Shown piece after piece: positions 10,685 through 64,000 of a stretch of DNA of 64,000 bases. The notes under the pieces were generated by a model, which saw nothing but the letters and a program-made list of their open reading frames with translations, was not told the DNA's origin and did not search any database. Numbering within the stretch: the stretch's first letter is position 1; each line of letters opens with the position of its first letter. The stretch is from contig OZ223497.1 of NCBI GenBank assembly GCA_965140785.1, positions 32,001-96,000 of the forward strand, in the 5' to 3' direction. This DNA is from an uncultured Ruficoccus sp. Lineage in GTDB: Bacteria; Verrucomicrobiota; Verrucomicrobiia; Opitutales; Cerasicoccaceae. The position numbers and the translations under genes are program-made.

Positions 10685-10721
10685 ACGGCCCGAACTGAGC
10701 CGCACATCCCCGCTCCGTCCT

Positions 10722-10767
10722 CAACTCTCAAACGGTCAAACTTTCAAACTTTCAAACTTTCAAACTT
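10722..10767 (+). repeat. 8-nt period tandem repeat (CAAACTTT)n
   Basis: caactctcaaacggtcaaactttcaaactttcaaactttcaaactt; a related tract occurs at 30164-30211. Confidence 0.85.
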
Positions 10768-10780
10768 CCCCGCGTTTCCC

Positions 10781-30078: not shown

Positions 30079-30210
30079 TTGAAGCAAAAGGTTCATCTTG
30101 CCGGAAAACGCCAAAATGGCAAGCGGACGAATCACCCTTTCCCAACTCTGCGAGCTGCTCCCCCAACTCTCAAACGATCAAACCCTCAAACCTTCAAACT
30201 CCCCTCAAAC

Positions 30211-36273: not shown

Positions 36274-36361
36274 GGAGAGGTGGCAGAGTGGCCGATTGTG
36301 CCTGACTCGAAATCAGGTGTACCGCAAGGTACCGGGGGTTCGAATCCCTCCCTCTCCGCCA
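36274..36361 (+). tRNA. tRNA-Ser(CGA)
   Basis: GGAGAGG acceptor stem, anticodon arm CCTGA-CT-CGA-AA-TCAGG, long variable arm GTACCGCAAGGTAC, GTTCGAATC T-loop, encoded CCA. Confidence 0.97.
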
Positions 36362-36860
36362 CAAACGCTCGGCGTTTGATCCGATTGAGGGGCTCCGCCC
36401 CTACGGTGTTGCGCACCTACCCCTCGTGGTTTCGATGGCATAGGAAAAGTTCGCATTCTCTTTCCCCGCGCCCGCCATGTTAATGGCGAACTAGGGTTAC
36501 CCTTAGATTTCAAAATTTCGCGGTTGTGACCAACCAAACGTGCTCGGCTAACGCCTTGTTTTTCAAGGGCTTTGTAACCTTTTTTGAATTCAAGACGCAG
36601 TTTTGGTTTTCCAAAAACAGGTTCGAACCGACTTTTTCGAGTGTTTTGCGCTTTTCCTCGGAATCGCTCTGCGGTTCCAGTTTCAGCGCTTCAACACTGG
36701 CCGTAAGGACTTCCGTTTCACTCGCTTGGTGCAGTGGTAGAAAGTGTAGGTGTGGACATTGCCATTCTTCTGACCTGCCTACGCAAACGGTATCGCTTGC
36801 CTTTCATCGTCTGAGTCCTTTCTAAGCACTCAGACCAACTTTGCAAGTGGCCCAGTTTAC

Positions 36861-37195
36861 GTGGACACGGTCAAATCGTCATCGGTACTTGAACTAAACT
36901 CCCGCTTACTGGGCTGCTGGCTGGGTAAATCAATCGGTAGTACGCTTGGGCTGCCTGCCGAAGGCCGCATGGACCGGCTGCACTACACGTTCTACGAGCC
37001 GGTGCCAACTGTCGCTCCGCTGACCCGGCCCGTCAAACGGTTAAACTGCCCGCAGGCAAGCACGAGATCCGTCTGGAGCTGTATGAAAAATCACCCGAGC
37101 AGGATGCGACGGTATATCTGGCCTATCCGAATTTGCACATCGCCCCGTGGACATCTGAAGAACTGCCGAAGTTGGCGCAACTCCCAGAAGCCTGA
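36861..37195 (+). pseudogene. Internally deleted ADP-ribosylglycohydrolase-family gene
   Basis: First ~53 codons closely match 63209 ORF (LNSRLLGCWLGKSIG..GLPAEG); at ~37020 it jumps into another frame encoding a C-terminus (DPARQTVKLPAGKHEIRLEL...LPEA*). Confidence 0.75.
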
Positions 37196-37235
37196 ACGGT
37201 TTCCATTAACCGCTTGTATTCAAAAAATCATTACT

Positions 37236-38324
37236 ATGTCTGATAAACTAAAAATCGGTATCCTCGGCTGTGGAAACATGGCGCAAATGGCGCACATTCC
37301 GGCCTTCAAATCGCTGGCCAACGCCGATGTCGTTGCCCTGTGTGATTTTCGTTTAGACGTCGCTCAAGCCTTGTGTACTCGTTGGGATGTCCCCAACGCC
37401 TGTGCCAGCCTTGAGGACATGCTGGCATTGGATATCGACGCTGTCGCGGTTCTGACGCCTGCGCATAGTCATTTGCGTGACATTCGGCTTTCACTGGAGG
37501 CGGGTAAGCATGTTTTTACCGAGAAGCCTGCCGCCATGTGTGTCGAGTCGGTACGCGAGCTTCAGCAGGTGGCCCAGAAGGCAGGAAAAACCGTCAGGGT
37601 CGGCTACATGAAGCGGCACGAGCAAAACATCTGCGAATTGCTGAAGCTTCAATCCGCAGGTGACTGGGGAAAGCTGCTCTTTGTGCGCACGCATTCGTTC
37701 ATCGGTAGTCACTGGGATGCCGCAGTGGGGAGTCTGGTTCGCCCGATTACTTCAAGCGAAATCCCGCCTTTCGATGCCTCGGTGCTCGATCCCGGACCGG
37801 GTTGGCTGGACGCTCCGCGTGACAAGTGTTTTTACAGCTTCGACAACCCATACTTTGGCCTGCTCGATACCGGCTCACACTCGGTCAATCTGCTGCGCTA
37901 CCTGACGGGAACAACGCCAAGTGTCAAAGGCGTGCGCAACAGCGGGCCAGTGCGCCTGGTGGATTTCGACTTTGGCGGGGTGCCAGGTGTGTTGGAGTTT
38001 TGCGTGAACTTCGCCATGGAGCGTTGGGACGAAGTGACCGAGCTTTACTTTGAAAAGGCCAGTGTAACGATCAAAACGCCGCCACCGCTGGACCGGCAGA
38101 CCTCCGCGCAGGTCGAGATCTACACCGAGGCCGACGGTCGCCACGAAAACCTTGTGTTGGAGAACAATCGCCGCTGGGCCTTCCAGCGACAGGCAGAGTC
38201 CTTTGTTCAGCAGGCGCTTGCCGGCGAAACTGGAACCGATCTGGAAGAGGCCGAGCAGGATGTTGCTTTGATCGAGCAAATCTACCGCCTGGAAACCGGG
38301 GCAGTCGTTCTCGCTGAATCCTGA
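37236..38324 (+). CDS. Gfo/Idh/MocA family oxidoreductase
   Basis: KIGILGCG Rossmann motif, AGKHVFTEKP, VGYMKR, LLDTGSH. Confidence 0.9.
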   Translation: MSDKLKIGILGCGNMAQMAHIPAFKSLANADVVALCDFRLDVAQALCTRWDVPNACASLEDMLALDIDAVAVLTPAHSHLRDIRLSLEAGKHVFTEKPAAMCVESVRELQQVAQKAGKTVRVGYMKRHEQNICELLKLQSAGDWGKLLFVRTHSFIGSHWDAAVGSLVRPITSSEIPPFDASVLDPGPGWLDAPRDKCFYSFDNPYFGLLDTGSHSVNLLRYLTGTTPSVKGVRNSGPVRLVDFDFGGVPGVLEFCVNFAMERWDEVTELYFEKASVTIKTPPPLDRQTSAQVEIYTEADGRHENLVLENNRRWAFQRQAESFVQQALAGETGTDLEEAEQDVALIEQIYRLETGAVVLAES

Positions 38325-38370
38325 GTCTGTATCCATCGTTCAATACAATTATTTATTCAACGAACACTCC

Positions 38371-39372
38371 ATGAAAATCGCCCATCATCTCGGACAGTCC
38401 AAAGTTGTCATTGAAGAAGTCTCCAAACCCGTGCCCAAAGCCGGTGAGGTCTTAGTCAAGAACGTCGTCTCCGCTCTTTGCGGGAGCGAGATGAACGACT
38501 ACCGCAAGGACGGGATACCCGGTGGCAACAATGGCCACGAGGCTGCCGGTGTCGTGGCTGAACTTGGCGAGGGTGTCACCTCATTGGAGGTCGGCCAGCG
38601 CGTCGGCGTCAGTGCGATCTCCGGTTGCGGAAAGTGCGACTACTGCAAAAAGGGTCAGTACACCTGGTGCGACAATTTTAGCTTCTATGGCAACATGCAT
38701 GCAGAGTATTTCGTCATCGCCGCGCATGCCTGCCACATCATCCCGGACGGCATTCCCTGGGAAGTCGGTGTGCTTATTACCGGTGACGGGTTAGGCGTGC
38801 CTTATCATACCTCCCGCAAGATCGCCTCGCCCGAAGTCGAGACGGTGGCGGTCTTCGGGCTCGGACCGATCGGCTTGGGAAATGTCCTTGTGCAAAGCCA
38901 TCTGGGCCGCCGCGTCATCGGGATCGACCTCTCGCCCGACCGCCGCGCACTCGCCGTGGACATGGGGGCGAGCGATGTCATCGCCGCCGATCAGGTCAAG
39001 GATATGCGTGAAGCCGTGGCGGAACTGACCGGCGGCATGGGGGCGGATGTGTGCATTGAGGCGGCGGGTATTCCCGTGACCGCGCGCCAGTGTTTTGCTT
39101 GTACGCGTAAGGGCGGTATCGTTGTCTTTAACGGCGAACAGCCGAAGCTCGAACTCTCCCCGAGCGAAGATTTTATCCGCCGCGATATTACCGCCATCGG
39201 CTCGTGGTTCTATCATTTCTGCGAGTATCCGGCCATGCGCAAGGCCTACGAAAACGGCCTGCGCGTGGACAAACTCGTCACTCACCAATATCCCTTTGAT
39301 CAAGTTTCCGACGCCTACCTGGCCATGGCCAACGGCAAATCCGGGAAGGTTCTCCTAAAATATGGGCAGTGA
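38371..39372 (+). CDS. Zinc-binding (MDR) sugar/alcohol dehydrogenase
   Basis: CGSE, GHE, CGKCDYC..G...C, GLGPIG, GKVLL. Confidence 0.92.
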   Translation: MKIAHHLGQSKVVIEEVSKPVPKAGEVLVKNVVSALCGSEMNDYRKDGIPGGNNGHEAAGVVAELGEGVTSLEVGQRVGVSAISGCGKCDYCKKGQYTWCDNFSFYGNMHAEYFVIAAHACHIIPDGIPWEVGVLITGDGLGVPYHTSRKIASPEVETVAVFGLGPIGLGNVLVQSHLGRRVIGIDLSPDRRALAVDMGASDVIAADQVKDMREAVAELTGGMGADVCIEAAGIPVTARQCFACTRKGGIVVFNGEQPKLELSPSEDFIRRDITAIGSWFYHFCEYPAMRKAYENGLRVDKLVTHQYPFDQVSDAYLAMANGKSGKVLLKYGQ

Positions 39373-39431
39373 GCGGATCGACGGACGAGCCGTCGTCGGC
39401 CATCATTTTATGGATGTTTGACGATAGGCAT

Positions 39432-39930
39432 GCATAGCGTGGGTTTTGTGATGAACCGATGAGTCTTATGGCTTGTCTGTACTGTATATTGTTCTATGTC
39501 CGTTTTTCATCATCGCCGATTTTCTCGGCCTGAGGTTTTGGCTTCGATCCGACCTGAATTGCTGCGGCGTTTTCTTACGCCCTATCAATCGTATTTTCAC
39601 GGAGGTGGATTCGATATGAAGTGTCTGAATCATCGGGCCGGGCCAGTTGAGTTGACGCATCTGTCGGACGTACTGATGACGACAGAGTCGGGCATTCCTC
39701 CAGAGGTAGCGAATGCCCTCTACGCTGTCCACGAAGTGGCAGTAGAAGAGAACACGGAGCTTCTGGAAATGCTCGCGTCCTCGGAGGAGGTGCCTCTTGA
39801 GCCGGATTCGACGTTGCTGGAGCTTGCGCTCAGCCTGTGGATGAGCGCTCCGAAGGCGCTCAAATGGGTTCACCAGCATCAGTCCTGTGAGCGCAAGCGC
39901 TCTTTCGAGTATTTCAGTACGGCGGGAGAT
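39432..39930 (+). repeat. Copy 1 of a direct repeat of at least 0.49 kb (module left end plus 5' part of gene A)
   Basis: Aligns closely with 63514-63999, beginning GCATAGCGTGG. Confidence 0.92.
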
Positions 39931-40605
39931 GCTTCGTCTGATTTTTCTCTGAGTGCGGAAGGGATTCGTCAGTTGGAGCAAAGTCTGTCCTATTACTTCA
40001 AAAAGAAGGATTGGGGCCATGGCTGTCGTATCAGTCATCGTTCGCAGCCAAACGAGCACTGGTTCTTAGTCAGCCATGGTGAGCGCTATAAGCGACAGGC
40101 GACATGGGAAGAGGGTCGGATGGGTACAATTGGCTTCCGGCCTGAGCGGTATGACCTCATCATCTACGATGCCCTGACGGAGGAATTGTGCGTCAATGCG
40201 CAGACGCCTACGCAGCGCGAGCACTACCGAAAGCTGTTTGGTTTCTATCTCTTCGGGCAGGAGAACTACTTCCCGGGTCGCAGCAAATATACGCTTGAGC
40301 CTCTGCTACGGGACGGTGCGACGGCCTTGTTTACAGGCGACATCCCCGAGATCGAGTCGGTCCGTCTGAGCGAATTGAGCTATGTGATTGATGGAAATTA
40401 TGAGGAGGTCGTCACCCATAAGGCGTATGATGTCTTTGCCTCAATGGAACAGCACCGAGAGCACATTCCACCAGGTGCCCGTTTGTTGAAAGCGACCTTC
40501 AAGTTGCGTTATACTGGTCACTCGAAAGAGCGTACACTGACGCTGAAACCATCCAACGTGGCGCTATACACCCGAGACGGTGACGGCCCTATATTGGATG
40601 GCTGA
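39496..40605 (+). CDS. Module gene A: hypothetical protein resembling those of integrative/prophage-like elements; possible terminal frameshift
   Basis: 369 aa; RPERYD, KYTLEPL, PSNVA motifs; a shifted frame continues WLKRREFV. Confidence 0.75.
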   Translation: MSVFHHRRFSRPEVLASIRPELLRRFLTPYQSYFHGGGFDMKCLNHRAGPVELTHLSDVLMTTESGIPPEVANALYAVHEVAVEENTELLEMLASSEEVPLEPDSTLLELALSLWMSAPKALKWVHQHQSCERKRSFEYFSTAGDASSDFSLSAEGIRQLEQSLSYYFKKKDWGHGCRISHRSQPNEHWFLVSHGERYKRQATWEEGRMGTIGFRPERYDLIIYDALTEELCVNAQTPTQREHYRKLFGFYLFGQENYFPGRSKYTLEPLLRDGATALFTGDIPEIESVRLSELSYVIDGNYEEVVTHKAYDVFASMEQHREHIPPGARLLKATFKLRYTGHSKERTLTLKPSNVALYTRDGDGPILDG

Positions 40606-40644
40606 AGCGGCGGGAATTTGTAGTTCGAGACCGGGTGAAGGGGC

Positions 40645-41688
40645 ATGAGCAGAGTGAGTATGTTCTGGCGGTCGGTTGAGGACATTGGTTCCGGGGCACG
40701 GGACGCCGCGCTGCAACGCTATCTGAGCAAAAGCTACGAGCAGATTCGCCCGTACCTGATGCCGTGTGCTGACTTGACGAGGCACATCGCTTGTGAGCGA
40801 ACGAGGGAGGGGCATTACTGCAAATACCGGATTGCGGATGTGCCAGAGGAGGACGGGACCTACGCCGCGATGTGCGATGAGCATTTCTGTCCGACTAAAT
40901 TCTACAGCCGCGAGGAGTTGGTCCGTTACACTATCAATCCGCAGATACTGCTTCCGGCCATCGCTCGATGTCTGGGGTTGCATCCGCAGATCAGTTCCAT
41001 CGTGGATGACGTATGGAGCCTGGGGCAAGTTCCGGGAACACCGACCGTGGCTCCGGTCTTGTTTACGCGAGTCAAGGATGCGTGTGCCATGCGGCGGGTC
41101 CTCCAGTCACTGATCGTTGAGGAAATCTCTCGCTTCGTTCTGGTGACGCCGACGGCCCGTTATTGTGTGGGAGGGCATCGTGCGTCTTTGCTATCGCGAT
41201 TTGAAGGGCAGATTCTCCCTTTGGAGGAGGTCACGGAGATGAAAGGCCACGAACCTGTTCTGACCGAAGCCGGAGGGGTACGCTGGCAAAAGGTAAAGGA
41301 ACTCGTCGGAGGGGCGACCGTGCTTGGAGCCACATTCCCGACGCCGCCGGGTGCGGATTGGCACGATCTCACCCTCGTGTTTCGAGACGGCCACACGGTG
41401 ACGGCCTCCATCGGCTCAGTCCGGGAGATTTACACGTTTCAGGACATGGGGATGGTGAACCGAAACACTCTCACCCCTGACGAGCAGTGGCAATTGCTCT
41501 ACCACTTTGCCGAAGAGATGGGCGTATTTACGTGGAGAAGCCAGCACGCCGATCATCGTAACAAGAAGCGCAAAGGGCGCTTGGCTTCGCGTCTGAGAGC
41601 GTTCTTTGGGATTCTTGGTAATCCCTTCGCTTACCGCAGGGAAGATGGCGGCTGGGAAGCTGTTTTTAACATTCGTATCGAATCATAA
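40645..41688 (+). CDS. Module gene B: hypothetical protein with Cys/His cluster and C-terminal OmpR-like wHTH-type tail
   Basis: 347 aa; CERT..HYC..MCDEHFC; FPTPPGADWHDL; RLASRLRAFFG..Y..GW. Confidence 0.7.
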   Translation: MSRVSMFWRSVEDIGSGARDAALQRYLSKSYEQIRPYLMPCADLTRHIACERTREGHYCKYRIADVPEEDGTYAAMCDEHFCPTKFYSREELVRYTINPQILLPAIARCLGLHPQISSIVDDVWSLGQVPGTPTVAPVLFTRVKDACAMRRVLQSLIVEEISRFVLVTPTARYCVGGHRASLLSRFEGQILPLEEVTEMKGHEPVLTEAGGVRWQKVKELVGGATVLGATFPTPPGADWHDLTLVFRDGHTVTASIGSVREIYTFQDMGMVNRNTLTPDEQWQLLYHFAEEMGVFTWRSQHADHRNKKRKGRLASRLRAFFGILGNPFAYRREDGGWEAVFNIRIES

Positions 41689-41703
41689 TCAAAGAACAGA
41701 AAC

Positions 41704-42081
41704 ATGGACATAGACAAGGAACTGAAACGCATCGCACAAGAGAAGAAGAATCTGCAAAAGCAGAGACAACAACTGCTTGAGCAGAAGAGAACGCGGAAGG
41801 CTGCTCTCTCCAAGCTTAGCACGCTCGTTAAACAGAGCGGTTTTGAAACGCCGAAGGCACTTATGGAGGCCTTGATTGAAATGTACGGCATTGAACTGAA
41901 CCGAGGGCGTAGTGCGGCCCCTGCCAAACAACGCAAACATACCAAAATGACGGCTGAGTTGCGCGACCAGATTCGGGCGATGCTGAATGACCGGTCCATG
42001 AACCAGGTTTCGAAGGAATTACAGATCAGCTATGCTGTCATCGCGAAGGTGTCCAACGGCGCTTACGACAAGCTCCAGTGA
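41704..42081 (+). CDS. Module gene C: small basic coiled-coil plus HTH DNA-binding protein (H-NS/MvaT-like architecture)
   Basis: N-terminal heptad coiled coil, K/R-rich linker, MNQVSKELQISYAVIAKV HTH. Confidence 0.75.
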   Translation: MDIDKELKRIAQEKKNLQKQRQQLLEQKRTRKAALSKLSTLVKQSGFETPKALMEALIEMYGIELNRGRSAAPAKQRKHTKMTAELRDQIRAMLNDRSMNQVSKELQISYAVIAKVSNGAYDKLQ

Positions 42082-42505
42082 TGGACACTTGATTGGTGAA
42101 ACTTGGGGGGCGGGGTAGGGGTGTGCCATTATTGCACGGTCCGGGTGTTGGAGTCCTCCAGTGTCGATCCCTCGTGTCCGGAACAGTTCCGTGTTAGAGT
42201 TCTCCTGTGTCGCACCCGCGTGTCCGAAATCGGGCTGTTTGCGCTATTTTAGCCTAAACCATCTCTTATGAAACATGACATGTGTCATCTGTGAGTTATA
42301 GCGTCGGGTTCTATAACTCATGGCAGAGAGCTTCCAGTCGGTTAACTACCTGAAATTTACCTATCGGTCAGAGGATATTGTCCCTTCCGAGAAGCTTTTC
42401 TCCTGCTGGTTGGTGCTTGTTTGGAGCAGGCCGCGCTCAGAACTCATATCTGCGCCGCTTAGTCGTAGCCATTGCTTATGAAGCAATTCGAGGAAGCGGC
42501 ATTGT

Positions 42506-48457: not shown

Positions 48458-48628
48458 CGTGGTGCTACGCCGACCAAACAGCGTAGACGCACCAAGATGA
48501 CGGCTGAGTTGTGCGACCAGACTCGGGCGATGCTGAATGACTAGTCCATTAACCAGGTTTCGAAGGAGTTACAGATCAGCTACGCCGTCATCGCCAAGGT
48601 GTCCAACGGGGCCTACGACAAGCTTTAG
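48458..48628 (+). pseudogene. 3' remnant of module gene C
   Basis: Aligns with ~41908-42081; CGG to TAG at 48542-48544. Confidence 0.85.
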
Positions 48629-48638
48629 TCGGCTGCGG

Positions 48639-49940
48639 TGTATGTACCATTAATTTTTAGGGAGAAGATTTGAAACAACAAGCTTACCTATTACTGAGCA
48701 TGATGGCTGGCTGGATGAACCGTCATCAGCAGCAAGTCATTGAGTATTTGGTCGAGGAGAACCGTATTCTCCGTGAGCAACTCGACATTCACGCCAAGGG
48801 CAAACGCATTCGCTTCAACGCGAACCAACGCAGGCGCTTGGCTGAGAAAGGCCGTTGTCTGGGGCGCAAGATGTTGATGAAGATAGCGACGCTCGTGACA
48901 CCAGAGACGATCTACCGCTGGCATCGCCAGTTCGTCGCAATGGCTTATGGTCCGAAGGGCCGGGATCATTCCGTTGTCCATGCTCGGCGGGCCGAGCGCA
49001 ATGCGCTCATCATCAAGCTGGCGGTTGAGAATTCAGGTTGGGGATACACGCGCATCCAAGGGGTGATGCAGAATCTCGGTTATCCGAAACTGAGTACCTC
49101 GACCATCGGGGAGGTGCTGCGCGAGGCAGGTATTCGCCCGTCGCCGGAGCGTAGCAGCCGTCTGGACTGGAAGACGTTTATACGTGTTCACGCCGATCAA
49201 CTGGCTGCCACTGACTTCTTCATGGTGCCGGTATGGACGTCGCGCGGCCTGGCCATGTATCGGGTGCATTTCGTGATCGACCTGCTGACACGTAAGGTGG
49301 AGATCACGCACATTGGTTGCCAATACTCCGGAGAGTTGATGCTCCAAATTGCCCGGAACCTGACGGATGCGTTCGAGGGATTCCTGACCGGCAAGAAATA
49401 CATGCTGCACGACCGCGACCCTCTCTTTACAAATGCGTTCCGTGAGTTGTTGCGTAGTAGTGGCACTATTCCTTTCAGGCTGCCTGTGTGCATGCCGATG
49501 ATGAACGGTTACGCCGAGTGCTTCGTTAAGTCGATCAAGCGTGAGTGCCTGGACAAGATAATTTTCTTCAGCGAGGCAGCCTTACGGAAAGCCATCAGCG
49601 AATACGTGCTGCATTATCACCACGAAAGACCGCATCAGGGCCGCGATAACCAAATCATCGAGCCGGACGTAGAAACCTTTCGCAATCAAGGCCCGATCCG
49701 AAAAATCGCACACCTCGGAGGGCTTCTGAATCACTACTATCGCGATCCATTACCGAAAATTGACGAAGGGGAGGGTAGGGCCGCATGAGCTTCCCCGACA
49801 GTTACTTTTCTTCAAAAAATGCCCGAGTCCGATGCCCGGGTGACTCCTTTCCCATCGACTCATATGCCCTGAATTGGCAAAATCATGGGCATATGATTTC
49901 GCCCTCCAACCTGCAAACGAAAGGACTTCTGGCACGCGCA
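48639..49940 (+). mobile_element. IS-like element with integrase-core (rve) transposase, IS481/IS3-related
   Basis: TG...CA ends with weak IR (TGTATGTACCATTAA / CTTCTGGCACGCGCA); no clear target duplication. Confidence 0.6.
48670..49788 (+). CDS. Integrase-core DDE transposase
   Basis: YLVEENRILRE, WGYTRIQG, ATDFF, HDRD, NGYAECFVKSIKRECLD, HYHHERPHQG, LGGLLNHY. Confidence 0.9.
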   Translation: MKQQAYLLLSMMAGWMNRHQQQVIEYLVEENRILREQLDIHAKGKRIRFNANQRRRLAEKGRCLGRKMLMKIATLVTPETIYRWHRQFVAMAYGPKGRDHSVVHARRAERNALIIKLAVENSGWGYTRIQGVMQNLGYPKLSTSTIGEVLREAGIRPSPERSSRLDWKTFIRVHADQLAATDFFMVPVWTSRGLAMYRVHFVIDLLTRKVEITHIGCQYSGELMLQIARNLTDAFEGFLTGKKYMLHDRDPLFTNAFRELLRSSGTIPFRLPVCMPMMNGYAECFVKSIKRECLDKIIFFSEAALRKAISEYVLHYHHERPHQGRDNQIIEPDVETFRNQGPIRKIAHLGGLLNHYYRDPLPKIDEGEGRAA

Positions 49941-50077
49941 AGTGACTGAGTGATGCGCGTCAATGCGACTGCGTGCAACGCTACTGATTTAATTGCGCCT
50001 TAACTCGAAAATGAATGAAGTTGCTGTATGTTGGCAATCAGCGACTTAGGTGATGGTGTCCGCGTCCCGCCACCTCC

Positions 50078-50626
50078 AGTGCAGAGGTTATTGCCTTGTC
50101 AACGGATGTGTCTGATGAAAAAGCAGTTGAAAGCTCTATCTCAGCTATCATATCTCAATGGGGTGCGATTGACCTTCTTGTCAATAATGCTGGAGTTGGC
50201 TTCGCGACCGATCTGTCTACTTGCTCGCTGGATGACTATCGCGCGATTTTTGAGACGAATGTGACCGGGGCTTTTCTCTGCACAAGGGCTGTTTTGCCTG
50301 GGATGAAAGAGCGTAAGTCGGGTCACATTATCAATGTTTCCTCGGTGGTTGGGAAAGTGACAAACCCCAATGCCCCTTTGTACTGCGCTAGCAAGCACGC
50401 CTTGAATGGCTTCAGTAATGGACTGGCCCAACAGGTAGCTACAGATGGGATTCGCGTTTCTATCGTTTCTCCCTCTGGGGTGGATACAGCCTACTGGGAT
50501 GGTCGTCAGGTTGACCGCAGTAAACTGCTGAAGGCGGAAGACGTGGCCCGGGCTATTCTGTTTGTCGCAGCACAGCCCGAAGGGGTGCTGATCAAGGACA
50601 TTGATTTAACGGCTTTCAGAAGTTGA
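50078..50626 (+). pseudogene. 5'-truncated SDR oxidoreductase
   Basis: DVSD, NNAG, SS, YCASK present; the N-terminal TGxxxGIG cofactor motif is missing. Confidence 0.75.
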
Positions 50627-53070: not shown

Positions 53071-53952
53071 ATGAATATCTCAGTAATTAGTAAATGTGCA
53101 CTAGCATTTTCGCTCACAGTGGCTGCGGCGAGCGCTGCCTCCGCGCAAATTCTTTTTTATGATTTTAATCAGACTGGAAGCTCTGTATCAAGCAGTGGGT
53201 CCGCCGATTACTCGCTGACGATGAGAGACTCCAATGGCGATATTGCAGATCTTCACTCGGCTGAGGGTGGGGGTGTGTCAGGAGCGTCAGATGATCGAGC
53301 ATTCGATAATACAGCGGCATCTGGGATGGGGAGTGCCGGGCAGAAAACAGGCGGATACGCTTATACTTCGTCAGCTATTAGCTCTACGATTGGCGGACTG
53401 GAATCTTTTACGGTAACAGGTTGGTTTAAGTCTGATTCAGTAATTGATAATGCGGCAGGACTAGTCAAATTTACAGCATCGGGAAGTCCAAACGCAGGTG
53501 TCTATGTCTATGCGTCTAATACCGGTAGATTAACCCTTCAAGTAAATGACATAAATGGATCGTATGTGCCCAATTCAGATTATAGTATAACTGACGAATG
53601 GGTGTTCTTTGCCATCACCTATGATGGTACAAAAACCAGTGACAACGTTGATTACTATATTGGTACTTCGACGGAAAGTGTGAGCTTGGCATATACTGCC
53701 ACTCTGGATGCAGGAACCGTAGTCGCTGCAAACACCGGACTAAGCGTTACGGTTAGCTCTCGGCCATACGATGGATATATGGACGACATTGGACTTTATG
53801 GGTCGTATGAGGACGATAGCGGTGTGCTCTCAATGGAGGCATTAGAGGATGCGCGAGCTGCCAGTGTTCCCGAGCCTTCATCCTCTTCGCTTTGTCTTGG
53901 TGCCCTTATCCTTTTAGCGATTGGCTATCGCCGCTTGTGTCGTCGCGATTGA
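53071..53952 (+). CDS. PEP-CTERM protein with LamG/concanavalin-like domain
   Basis: Signal peptide; SFTVTGW, WVFFAITYDG, YDGYMDD; VPEP plus TM plus RR. Confidence 0.85.
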   Translation: MNISVISKCALAFSLTVAAASAASAQILFYDFNQTGSSVSSSGSADYSLTMRDSNGDIADLHSAEGGGVSGASDDRAFDNTAASGMGSAGQKTGGYAYTSSAISSTIGGLESFTVTGWFKSDSVIDNAAGLVKFTASGSPNAGVYVYASNTGRLTLQVNDINGSYVPNSDYSITDEWVFFAITYDGTKTSDNVDYYIGTSTESVSLAYTATLDAGTVVAANTGLSVTVSSRPYDGYMDDIGLYGSYEDDSGVLSMEALEDARAASVPEPSSSSLCLGALILLAIGYRRLCRRD

Positions 53953-54057
53953 TACCCCAGTCGTCGTCCCGTCTCTTGATTTTGGTTAATAAGCAATGAT
54001 GGAGGACACCTTCATCAATAGCTTAGTAATCTACATCCGTAGCCGTTAGGAGATATT

Positions 54058-54717
54058 ATGAATCCACGCGTGGAATATTCGTGCCGACGTTCACAGCCAG
54101 CCTTTTCACTGGTAGAACTGTTGGCGGCAATTGGTGTAATTACTATTCTTGCCGCACTTGTTATTGTGGGCATTAGATCTGCTCGTGTTGCTGCTCAACG
54201 TTCGGAGTGCACGAGTCAGCTACGACAAATTGCCAGCCTCATTCTGTTGAACGCCGCAGATAGTAAGCAGGAGGTGCTTCCGGCGTATTCAGGTATAGCC
54301 GGAGAAACCGCTGGAAGCTATTGGTATGCGCGGACGTCTCCATTGACCAACTACATTGATGAAGATGAGCTTCAGCAACTTGCAGTGTGTCCGGTAAATC
54401 GAACGGATGGTTCGTTGGATGTCGTTGACGGCCTGTATATTCGAAACGACTACGGATATCCCTATGTTCCAAACTACTACGTCATGAAGAGTAACGGTCG
54501 GGATTTGGTGCATTTGAGTGATATAATTGATCCCCCAGGGACCATTCTTATGGCGGATGCAGTGTCAGGTCCGGGGTGGGGCGTTGGTTTTGCGTGGAGC
54601 CAACTTTCAAGAGTCGGAACCCAACACGGTGGTAACACAAATATCCTATGGTGCGATGGGCATGTGTCTTCCATCGATAAAAATGAACTGACGCTGGATA
54701 AGCTTTTATTGGATTAA
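54058..54717 (+). CDS. Prepilin-type N-terminal methylation protein with H-X9-DG C-terminal motif
   Basis: AFSLVELL, C.SQLRQI, HGGNTNILWCDGHV. Confidence 0.9.
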   Translation: MNPRVEYSCRRSQPAFSLVELLAAIGVITILAALVIVGIRSARVAAQRSECTSQLRQIASLILLNAADSKQEVLPAYSGIAGETAGSYWYARTSPLTNYIDEDELQQLAVCPVNRTDGSLDVVDGLYIRNDYGYPYVPNYYVMKSNGRDLVHLSDIIDPPGTILMADAVSGPGWGVGFAWSQLSRVGTQHGGNTNILWCDGHVSSIDKNELTLDKLLLD

Positions 54718-63208: not shown

Positions 63209-63532
63209 ATGAAAGCACACGATACTACGTCCGCCATTACCAATCATCTTAGTCTTAACTCCCGCTTACTGGGCTGTTGGCTGGGGAAATCGATCGGGGG
63301 GACGTTTGGGCTGCCTGCCGAAGGAAAAATGGAACGGCTTAACTACACATTTTACGATCCAGTGCCAACGATTGCTCCTCCCAATGACGACCTCGAACTG
63401 CAACTGGTCTGGCTGCACCTGGTCGAGCAGAACAAAAGCGGCGAGTTGACGGCTCAGGACTTTGCCAAGGCCTGGATCGAAAACATTCACTACATGTGGG
63501 ACGAGTATGGCAAGCATAGCGTGGTTTCGTGA
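63209..63532 (+). pseudogene. 3'-truncated ADP-ribosylglycohydrolase-family gene
   Basis: GCWLGKSIGGTFG, PNDDL, DEYG, then runs directly into the repeated module at 63514. Confidence 0.8.
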
Positions 63533-64000
63533 TGAACCGCTGAGTCTTATGGTTTATCTGTACGGTATATTGTTCTATGTCCGTTTTTCATCATCGCCGA
63601 TTTTCTCGGCCTGAGGTTTTGGCTTCGATCCGACCTGAATTGCTGCGGCGTTATCAGTCCTATTTTCATGGCGGTGGATTCGATGTGGATTGTCTGAATC
63701 ATCGGGTAGGACCAGTTGAGTTGGCGCATCTGTCGGACGTACTGATGACGACAGAGTCGGGCATTCCTCCAGAGGTAGCGAATGCCCTCTACGCTGTCCA
63801 CGAAGTGGCAGTAGAAGAGAACACGGAGCTCTTGGAAATGCTCGCGTCCTCGGAGGAGGTGCCGCTTGAGCCGGACTCGACGTTGCTGGAGCTTGCGCTC
63901 AGCCTGTGGATGACTGCGCCGAAGGCGCTCAAGTGGATTCACCAGCATTAGTCCTGCAAGCGTAAGCGCTCTTTCGAGTATTTCAGTACGGCGGGAGATA
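63514..64000 (+). pseudogene. Copy 2 of module left end with degenerate gene A (runs off the window)
   Basis: Near-identical to 39432-39930; 12-nt deletion (FLTP) and CAG to TAG at 63949-63951. Confidence 0.88.

Follow-up and report, generated by a model that had tools for sequence, protein, structure and literature searches.

The stretch of DNA analysed here (the window) has 64 kb, corresponds to C26:32001-96000 and belongs to a genome of an uncultured Ruficoccus sp. (G000, 50 contigs). It carries three consecutive genes, named A, B and C, at 39496-42081. An earlier note had described the region 39432-42330 as a recurrent three-gene module, transposase-less and apparently mobile. The features of this unit, of its repeats and of the insertion sequence (IS) next to one of them are:

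39432..39495, + strand: leader of 64 bp, common to copies 1, 2 and 3 and diverged on contig C4 (alignments, blastn)
39496..40605, + strand: gene A, copy 1, frameshifted, with a predicted RdgC/CENP-N-like fold (sequence comparison, model)
40645..41688, + strand: gene B, the sole copy, with a Cys-rich N-terminal part and a predicted OmpR/PhoB-type winged-helix C-terminus (tblastn, model)
41704..42081, + strand: gene C, encoding a small basic protein with a coiled coil and a C-terminal helix-turn-helix (HTH) (sequence comparison)
48458..48628, + strand: remnant of a second C gene, its 3′ 171 bp, 84.5% identical to copy 1
48634..50079, + strand: rve (DDE) IS, with the transposase reading frame at 48670-49788 (Pfam rve_3/rve)
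63514..64000, + strand: leader and gene A, copy 2, continuing past the window to ~C26:96208, where it stops

The copies of the three genes were counted by tblastn against the entire G000 genome. Gene A was present at four places, every one damaged. Copy 1 was complete in length and had a 4-bp deletion near 40595, which shifts the frame and removes ~28 C-terminal residues, including nearly invariant positions; the lost C-terminus was still readable in another frame, up to 40679. Copy 2 (~202 codons) had lost 12 bp in frame, carried a TAG at codon 125 and ended beside a GH4 gene. Copy 3 (233 codons, C26:131859) broke off at codon 233, where the left end of an rve-type IS interrupts it. Copy 4 (~110 codons, contig C4) had a frameshift and in-frame stop codons. 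Gene B was single-copy. Gene C was found at four places: copy 1, one remnant, and a solo paralogue of full length on each of the contigs C48 and C10. The complete A-B-C unit occurred once in the genome.

Between copies 1 and 2, the leader and the 5′ part of A were 93-95% identical (39442-39882 vs 63523-63951), with a sharp drop in identity at GCATAGCGTGG. The blastn alignment spanned 39414-40142 vs 63494-64204, with 90% identity. The last 171 bp of C (41908-42079) were repeated at 48458-48629, with about 85% identity. The repeats of the left end with gene A and of the C 3′ end, both reported in the earlier note, were therefore real, and so was the cut of an ADP-ribosylglycohydrolase (ARH) gene right after DEYG at copy 2, where the ARH frame follows its paralogues up to K102. 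What recurs, however, is the leader with the 5′ part of A, and separately the remnant of C, and not the three-gene module as a whole. No inverted or direct terminal repeats were seen around A-B-C, and the sequence at 42082-42490 was without a blastn match that could define the right end of the unit. With respect to the marks of a transposable element, G000 had neither several complete copies in different contexts nor conserved termini with target duplications or attachment sites.

An ARH 5′ fragment was found upstream of all four A copies (tblastn, blastn). In the window, the sequences to the left of copies 1 and 2 are:

36787..36873, no strand assigned: MITE-like (miniature inverted-repeat transposable element) dispersed repeat of 87 bp, with 16 other places in the genome at 87-95% (blastn)
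36861..37018, + strand: ARH 5′ fragment, copy 1, 82% identical to 63254-63378 and 85.6% to C4:212620-212751 (tblastn)
37019..37195, + strand: last ~180 bp of ARH, copy 1 (blastn against contig C4, where it is in the ARH frame)
37215..38324, + strand: Gfo/Idh/MocA oxidoreductase, in the duplicated block and outside the module (PF01408, E 7.8e-23; three genome copies)
38371..39372, + strand: Zn-dependent alcohol dehydrogenase (ADH), in the duplicated block (Pfam ADH_N/ADH_zinc_N; three genome copies)
39410..39431, + strand: scrap resembling ARH codons 96-102 of copy 2, left of the boundary (27-mer test)
63209..63513, + strand: first 102 codons (5′) of ARH, copy 2, within an ARH frame at 63209-63532 (Pfam PF03747, E 9.6e-5; tblastn)

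Copies 1 and 3 had 3306 bp in common, with 97.5% identity (36874-40179 of the window and C26:129249-132542, the latter outside the window; blastn). Since this block includes the ARH fragment and the Gfo/Idh/MocA and Zn-ADH genes, in addition to the leader and A up to codon 233, the copies are segmental duplications. The Gfo/Idh/MocA-ADH stretch was found also on contig C4 (37013-39377 = C4:213864-216227, 98.4%), flanked there by a near-complete ARH and an A remnant of 81% identity. Relative to this near-complete paralogue, ARH copy 1 misses 1112 internal bp. By this deletion, a chimeric open frame of 487 codons (36861-38324) has formed, which begins at the ARH start, reads the 3′ sequence of ARH out of frame and continues into the Gfo/Idh/MocA gene. 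The 87-bp MITE-like repeat directly adjoins the left end of the 3.3-kb block, and a longer relative of 136 bp was found at C26:116886-117019.

The leaders of copy 1 and of the contig C4 copy are homologous but diverged, and this homology takes in the bases left of the boundary. The A copy on this contig has no ARH codon 102 beside it, yet it shows the same junction as the other copies. Because the homology of its leader reaches beyond the boundary, the ARH/A junction likely arose once and was then copied. The sequences before the two window boundaries had been noted to be partly alike. In register this holds, the score of the two 27-mers being reached by only 2 of 5000 random 27-mers from the window, but their free local alignment was not significant (151 of 2000 shuffles reached the score). 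A derivation of the 64-bp leader from the tail of ARH, by an internal ARH deletion, was rejected, as its alignments to six ARH 3′ ends stayed below the 95th percentile of shuffles.

The rve IS begins 5 bp after the stop codon of the C remnant, and the same IS left end joins codon 233 of A in copy 3. The first of these junctions (C stop, TCGGC, TGCGGTG...) was identical in a relative of the same genus (G003:C14, IS at L024:11806-13250), placing the IS at the same position, 5 bp past the C stop, in two species. The joint 40179->48634, equal to the copy 3 junction, was present in a contig of a public run. No target duplications were seen flanking the rve IS copies beside A and C. The IS encodes a transposase of 372 aa and has no obvious terminal inverted repeats. 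Its copies on contigs C26 and C4, both full and partial, are numerous. The description of the module as transposase-less is accurate for A, B and C, but an rve IS adjoins the C remnant and cuts copy 3.

To the left, copy 1 of A-B-C has ARH, Gfo/Idh/MocA and ADH sequences as neighbours in the window, and to the right a LysM amidase, MetE and LysR. Among 41 related genomes (this genome counted), A was found in six and B in five. In the other genomes of the genus, A was present in 4/4 and B in 3/4, and the nearest proteins bear source names that indicate Ruficoccus. In a wider sample of 401 Verrucomicrobiota genomes, 26 had A. A and B were adjacent or fused in 9 of the 12 fetched loci, two loci had A without a detectable B, and one was unscorable. 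Natural A-B fusions were P0184 and P0229 (two of 147 newly listed representatives) and L065.

Within the genus, G003 has three full A-B copies in three contexts: (i) on contig C14, the order is a major facilitator superfamily (MFS) gene, a full ARH (492 aa), A, B, C and the rve IS; (ii) on the 5.9-kb contig C18 (L025), an ARH 3′ fragment, A and B lie between two inverted IS3-family copies, a layout that resembles a composite transposon; and (iii) on contig C16, A and B stand between a gene for an unknown protein of 437 aa and two small genes followed by an AAA_25 gene. G001 has an ECF sigma factor and FecR before A, B and C. On G004:C54, an MFS gene, a full ARH, A, B and C are followed by genes of the opposite strand, for a large serine recombinase, DUF2924 and phage baseplate proteins. 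The ARH of both G003 and G004 is intact, and A begins after the ARH stop codon with a spacer of ~40 bp. DNA homology between the window and these relatives spans only 39511-42074, stopping at the A start and the C stop, which shows that there are no common non-coding ends.

Outside the genus, A and B were found in integrated elements that are still intact. The complete genome G240 has four related elements of 22-25 kb (L066+L076, L067+L079, L064+L081 and L065+L082), with mutual homology starting from the A start codon. Their gene order is A, B, a HTH_17 protein, an ERCC4 nuclease, a DUF2800 nuclease, a family-A polymerase and a DUF5906 primase-helicase. In L066+L076, which was annotated to its right end, these are followed by a terminase, a Mu-type portal protein, a protease and a tyrosine integrase beside a tRNA-Pro. 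A SLFN/AlbA_2 gene was also present in this element, and no tail genes were recognised in it. A tRNA-Val lies just past the right ends of two other elements, so that three of the four have a tRNA-side end. With this gene content, the G240 elements may be small phages, or satellites that encode a capsid. In G428, a tyrosine integrase is found directly upstream of A.

The viral contigs gave a similar picture. From 19 IMG/VR contigs with B relatives, 11 had a large serine recombinase, usually with DUF2924, at ≤5 kb from A/B. From the remaining contigs, one had a weak tyrosine integrase nearby, three were cut by the contig end, two had host genes directly upstream of A, and two were without a recombinase. 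A LexA/S24-type repressor gene was found directly upstream of A, on the same strand, in 5/19 contigs. The INPHARED phages gave no tblastn match for A or B. As tyrosine integrases are found with A-B too, the pair is not bound to a single type of recombinase. Judging by these gene orders, the A-B pair sits essentially at or near the integrase end of integrated phage-like elements elsewhere, placed between the recombinase or repressor and the replication genes. For C, one of the paralogues in G000 opens another probable integrated element (L030, G000:C48:13772-20991), with the order 168-aa gene, C paralogue, helicase and AAA_25 primase-helicase, and without A-B. A DNA match to the serine-recombinase region of G004 was found near C48:26000, ~11 kb downstream of this paralogue.

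Proteins A, B and C had no match in Pfam, NCBIfam, PHROGs or PADLOC, with only chance-level rows for C. In agreement with the earlier note, none of the three matched a DDE, tyrosine or serine recombinase family, and their folds suggest DNA binding only. The A family is large, with 2,610 cluster representatives (50% identity) at E ≤ 0.001, of which 830 at E ≤ 1e-30. Among 20 sampled relatives of A and B (17 of A) there was no Pfam match.

The structural model of A (predicted local distance difference test (pLDDT) 80) matched RdgC with a Foldseek E-value of 2.3e-5, a probability of 1.00 and a template modelling (TM) score of 0.25-0.30. In the structural comparison by VIA, A was aligned with RdgC 2owy over 117 residues, with Z 8.4 and a root-mean-square deviation of 4.3 Å; the Z values for RdgC were 8.4 and 7.3 in this second look and 5.7 in the wide search, just above the usual noise. 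For CENP-N/Chl4, Z was 8.5-9.1. From these moderate matches, A is predicted to have an RdgC/CENP-N-like DNA-binding fold, common to RdgC (PDB 2OWL, 2OWY; Pfam PF04381), CENP-N/Chl4 and CENP-L/Iml3. This fold covers residues ~67-270 and beyond, and the protein is rich in invariant polar residues, with a conserved KYTLEPL motif. It differs from RdgC by the lack of a match to the RdgC model PF04381 (no Pfam match at E ≤ 0.01), by an extra N-terminal helical domain, and by the obligate partner B, to which it is sometimes fused.

For B, the model (pLDDT 87) has a C-terminal winged helix of the OmpR/PhoB type (Z 5-6.1), and the N-terminal part gave only weak matches. Foldseek found no match for B at E ≤ 0.001 in BFVD or in the Protein Data Bank (PDB), and its atlas neighbours are unnamed clusters with many Uroviricota members. 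C is a basic protein with an N-terminal coiled coil and a HTH, confined to this order. In its atlas neighbours, 10-25% of the members have HTH_23 or HTH_7, and its matches to PDB sequences were at chance level. The idea that the module brings its own silencer-like protein was not supported, C having no Pfam match of the H-NS/MvaT/Lsr2 type and resembling these proteins by its coiled coil only. A relationship of C with the HTH_17/excisionase-like proteins that follow B elsewhere was rejected as well (hhalign probability 1.2%), only the position being alike. No membrane segment was found in A, B or C, the highest 19-residue Kyte-Doolittle mean of B being 1.21.

Copy 1 of A-B-C was 87.3% identical to the DNA of G003:C14, and the adjacent core block (LysM-amidase/MetE/LysR) was also 87.3% identical. 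The ratios of nonsynonymous to synonymous substitution rates (dN/dS) against the G003 copies were 0.05-0.075 for A, 0.10-0.11 for B and 0.16 for C. The core-like divergence and the low dN/dS indicate that the genus has long had the cassette, and that it was functional over most of this period. The damage to the cassette in this genome is recent.

Together, these results suggest, with a probability of about 75%, that A-B-C (39496-42081) is an orphaned end cassette of phage-like elements, which was duplicated in the genome and eroded by IS and deletions. Its source would be a family of integrated elements, and the cassette itself would have no means of its own movement. In the intact relatives, the order is recombinase, in some cases a repressor, A, B, a small HTH protein and replication genes, which places A-B at or beside the attachment-site end. 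In this genus, the cassette would have been left beside an ARH gene of a sugar operon. The ARH/A junction would then have been copied by segmental duplication, once together with the Gfo/Idh/MocA and ADH genes. Finally, the copies would have been eroded by the rve IS, with truncations adjacent to it, and by internal deletions, a frameshift and a stop codon. A, B and C most likely act jointly on DNA, as a regulator of the lysogeny region or as an exclusion device in the manner of lambda cI-rexA-rexB.

Homologues within elements having integrase, replication and packaging genes, as expected for a prophage fragment, were found through G240 and IMG/VR. The earlier note had itself named two outcomes that would contradict a mobile module, and both describe essentially what we found. 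The copies derive from segmental duplication without conserved ends (the 3306-bp block, no common termini), and A/B are end genes of prophages with their own recombinase (G240, G428, G004 and 11/19 IMG/VR contigs). Its second proposal, tandemly accreted island units, comes close to the data as far as duplication is concerned, but IS cuts and deletions followed. With cryptic prophage remnants and IS-shaped duplications, the locus shares terminal genes flanked by host genes, broken copies, breakpoints at IS, and blocks co-duplicated with unrelated neighbours. It differs from them in that no recombinase or structural phage gene is left, and in that the surviving genes were under purifying selection until recently.

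Several observations weigh against an orphaned prophage end. No phage or recombinase gene adjoins copy 1, and no empty pre-insertion site was found in the relatives, as the synteny is broken and the window flanks map to unlinked places in G001 and G003. For these two reasons, the notion of a cassette left behind by a prophage is drawn from other genomes only. In the G240 elements, exact repeats of at least 13 bp linking the ends were absent, save for one 13-mer within an element, and the tRNA matched the left flank by 8-12 bp only, so that no attachment-site repeats were found in intact elements. The likeness in register left of the boundary can also be read as a target preference. The ARH that adjoins A here is a different paralogue from the one in G003 and G004, with just 48% identity between the two against 92% for A, and the G000 orthologue of the latter ARH (C26:228359-229822) has no A beside it. 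This mismatch could be due to recombination among the many ARH paralogues or to an attachment region near ARH genes. The dN/dS of 0.05-0.16 speaks for genes functional during most of their history rather than for a long-dead relic. For both A (Z 8.4-9.1) and B (Z 5-6), the structural matches are moderate.

The low dN/dS, together with a divergence equal to that of core genes, would also fit a host cassette that has been domesticated and still works, for instance in superinfection exclusion or in controlling nearby genes. It would be transcribed together with the sugar operon upstream, and the extra fragments would be incidental debris. The cassette persists without phage genes in G003:C14, in G001 and here, and the ARH-A spacer in G003 and G004 is short. 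Furthermore, the repressor-A-B layout of the viral contigs parallels cI-rexA-rexB, RexA having an RdgC fold according to PMC11077077. However, A is frameshifted in this genome, with loss of nearly invariant C-terminal residues, and the other three copies are broken. There was no credible PADLOC match, RexA was outside the top 50 structural matches of A, and B has no membrane segment. A domesticated cassette is possible, although doubtful.

Slightly less likely is a spread within the genus driven by IS in place of homologous or illegitimate segmental duplication, with the genes being either passengers of composite transposons or products of one-ended or adjacent-deletion events of IS3/rve elements. 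The bracketing of the ARH 3′ fragment, A and B by two inverted IS3 copies on G003:C18 agrees with it. So do the rve IS abutting C in two genomes and A in copy 3, the many IS fragments in the region, and the lack of target duplications, expected after IS-mediated deletion or recombination. But an IS is missing from the ends of copies 1 and 2 and of the contig C4 copy, and the left end of the 3.3-kb block abuts the MITE-like repeat in copy 1 only. As contig C18 has only 5.9 kb, collapsed repeats may form its ends.

A discrete, undescribed integrative element or satellite that targets ARH sequence, with A/B as an unrecognised recombinase, is very improbable: it would account for the sharp boundary and the upstream 27-mers, for A lying beside ARH in three species though the ARH are so much less similar than A, for the three G003 copies, for the invariant polar residues of A and for the host genes abutting A in two viral loci and in the four elements of G240, but there is one complete unit with a single-copy B, homology to the relatives is restricted to the coding region, terminal repeats are absent, the duplicates carry flanking genes and all four A copies, the diverged one on contig C4 included, have one junction, the ARH in G003 and G004 are intact with A behind their stop codon, and the intact relatives have classical integrases. 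The self-contained element at a preferred target proposed in the earlier note is thus not supported; historically, the descent from an integrative element is right, but a self-mobile module is not.

Tentatively, and with more doubt than confidence, A-B may be a very large, unnamed two-protein module of temperate phages across phyla, possibly a Rex-like lysogeny device. The analogy rests on gene order and fold. As in lambda cI-rexA-rexB, two accessory genes stand right behind an S24/LexA-type repressor, on the same strand, in five viral A-B loci. RexA has 279 aa and A ~395 aa, without sequence similarity between them. RexA was absent from the top 50 structural matches of A, which shares with it a predicted DNA-binding fold of the RdgC/Iml3/Chl4 type, the fold of RexA being taken from PMC11077077. 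RexB is a multi-pass membrane protein, whereas B is modelled as a soluble alpha/beta protein with a winged helix. Unlike the rex genes, A-B head an operon with replication genes in the tRNA-integrating elements. In temperate phages that carry a large serine recombinase and DUF2924, the lysogeny modules near the integrase have the same neighbourhood as A-B (11/19 viral contigs and G004); A-B differ from these by occurring with tyrosine integrases as well. A Rex-like device may exclude other phages or lock the lysis-lysogeny switch, and would explain why orphan cassettes were kept under purifying selection beside sugar operons. The repeated adjacency to ARH might then mark a common attachment region. 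The portions available to us of the literature on RdgC and prophages, DUF2924 and serine recombinases, and RexA and exclusion held no description of the A-B pair.

Some other features of the window were recorded:

36274..36361, + strand: tRNA-Ser(cga) (ARAGORN)

Past this tRNA, the G + C content drops from ~0.60 to 0.51-0.58, and no integrase adjoining it was found in the window (list of open reading frames (ORFs), Pfam scan). A PEP-CTERM-type protein and a prepilin-like protein with N-terminal methylation were seen by eye in the ORF translations at 53071-54717, consistent with a Verrucomicrobiota host. This is a stretch of low G + C content (0.47-0.52), rich in glycan-utilisation genes. The 8-bp unit TCAAACNN forms short tandem arrays at 10704-10774 and 30154-30200 (repeat family D3).

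A mobile element without a recombinase would have been important, and the evidence speaks against it. What remains of the locus is ordinary genome history, made of prophage debris, segmental duplication and cuts by IS. Only its uncharacterised A-B pair is of wider interest: widespread and completely unannotated, it is a marker for the integrase end in temperate phages and satellites from poorly studied phyla. Naming and testing A-B would improve the calling of prophage boundaries, and might reveal a new function linked to lysogeny.

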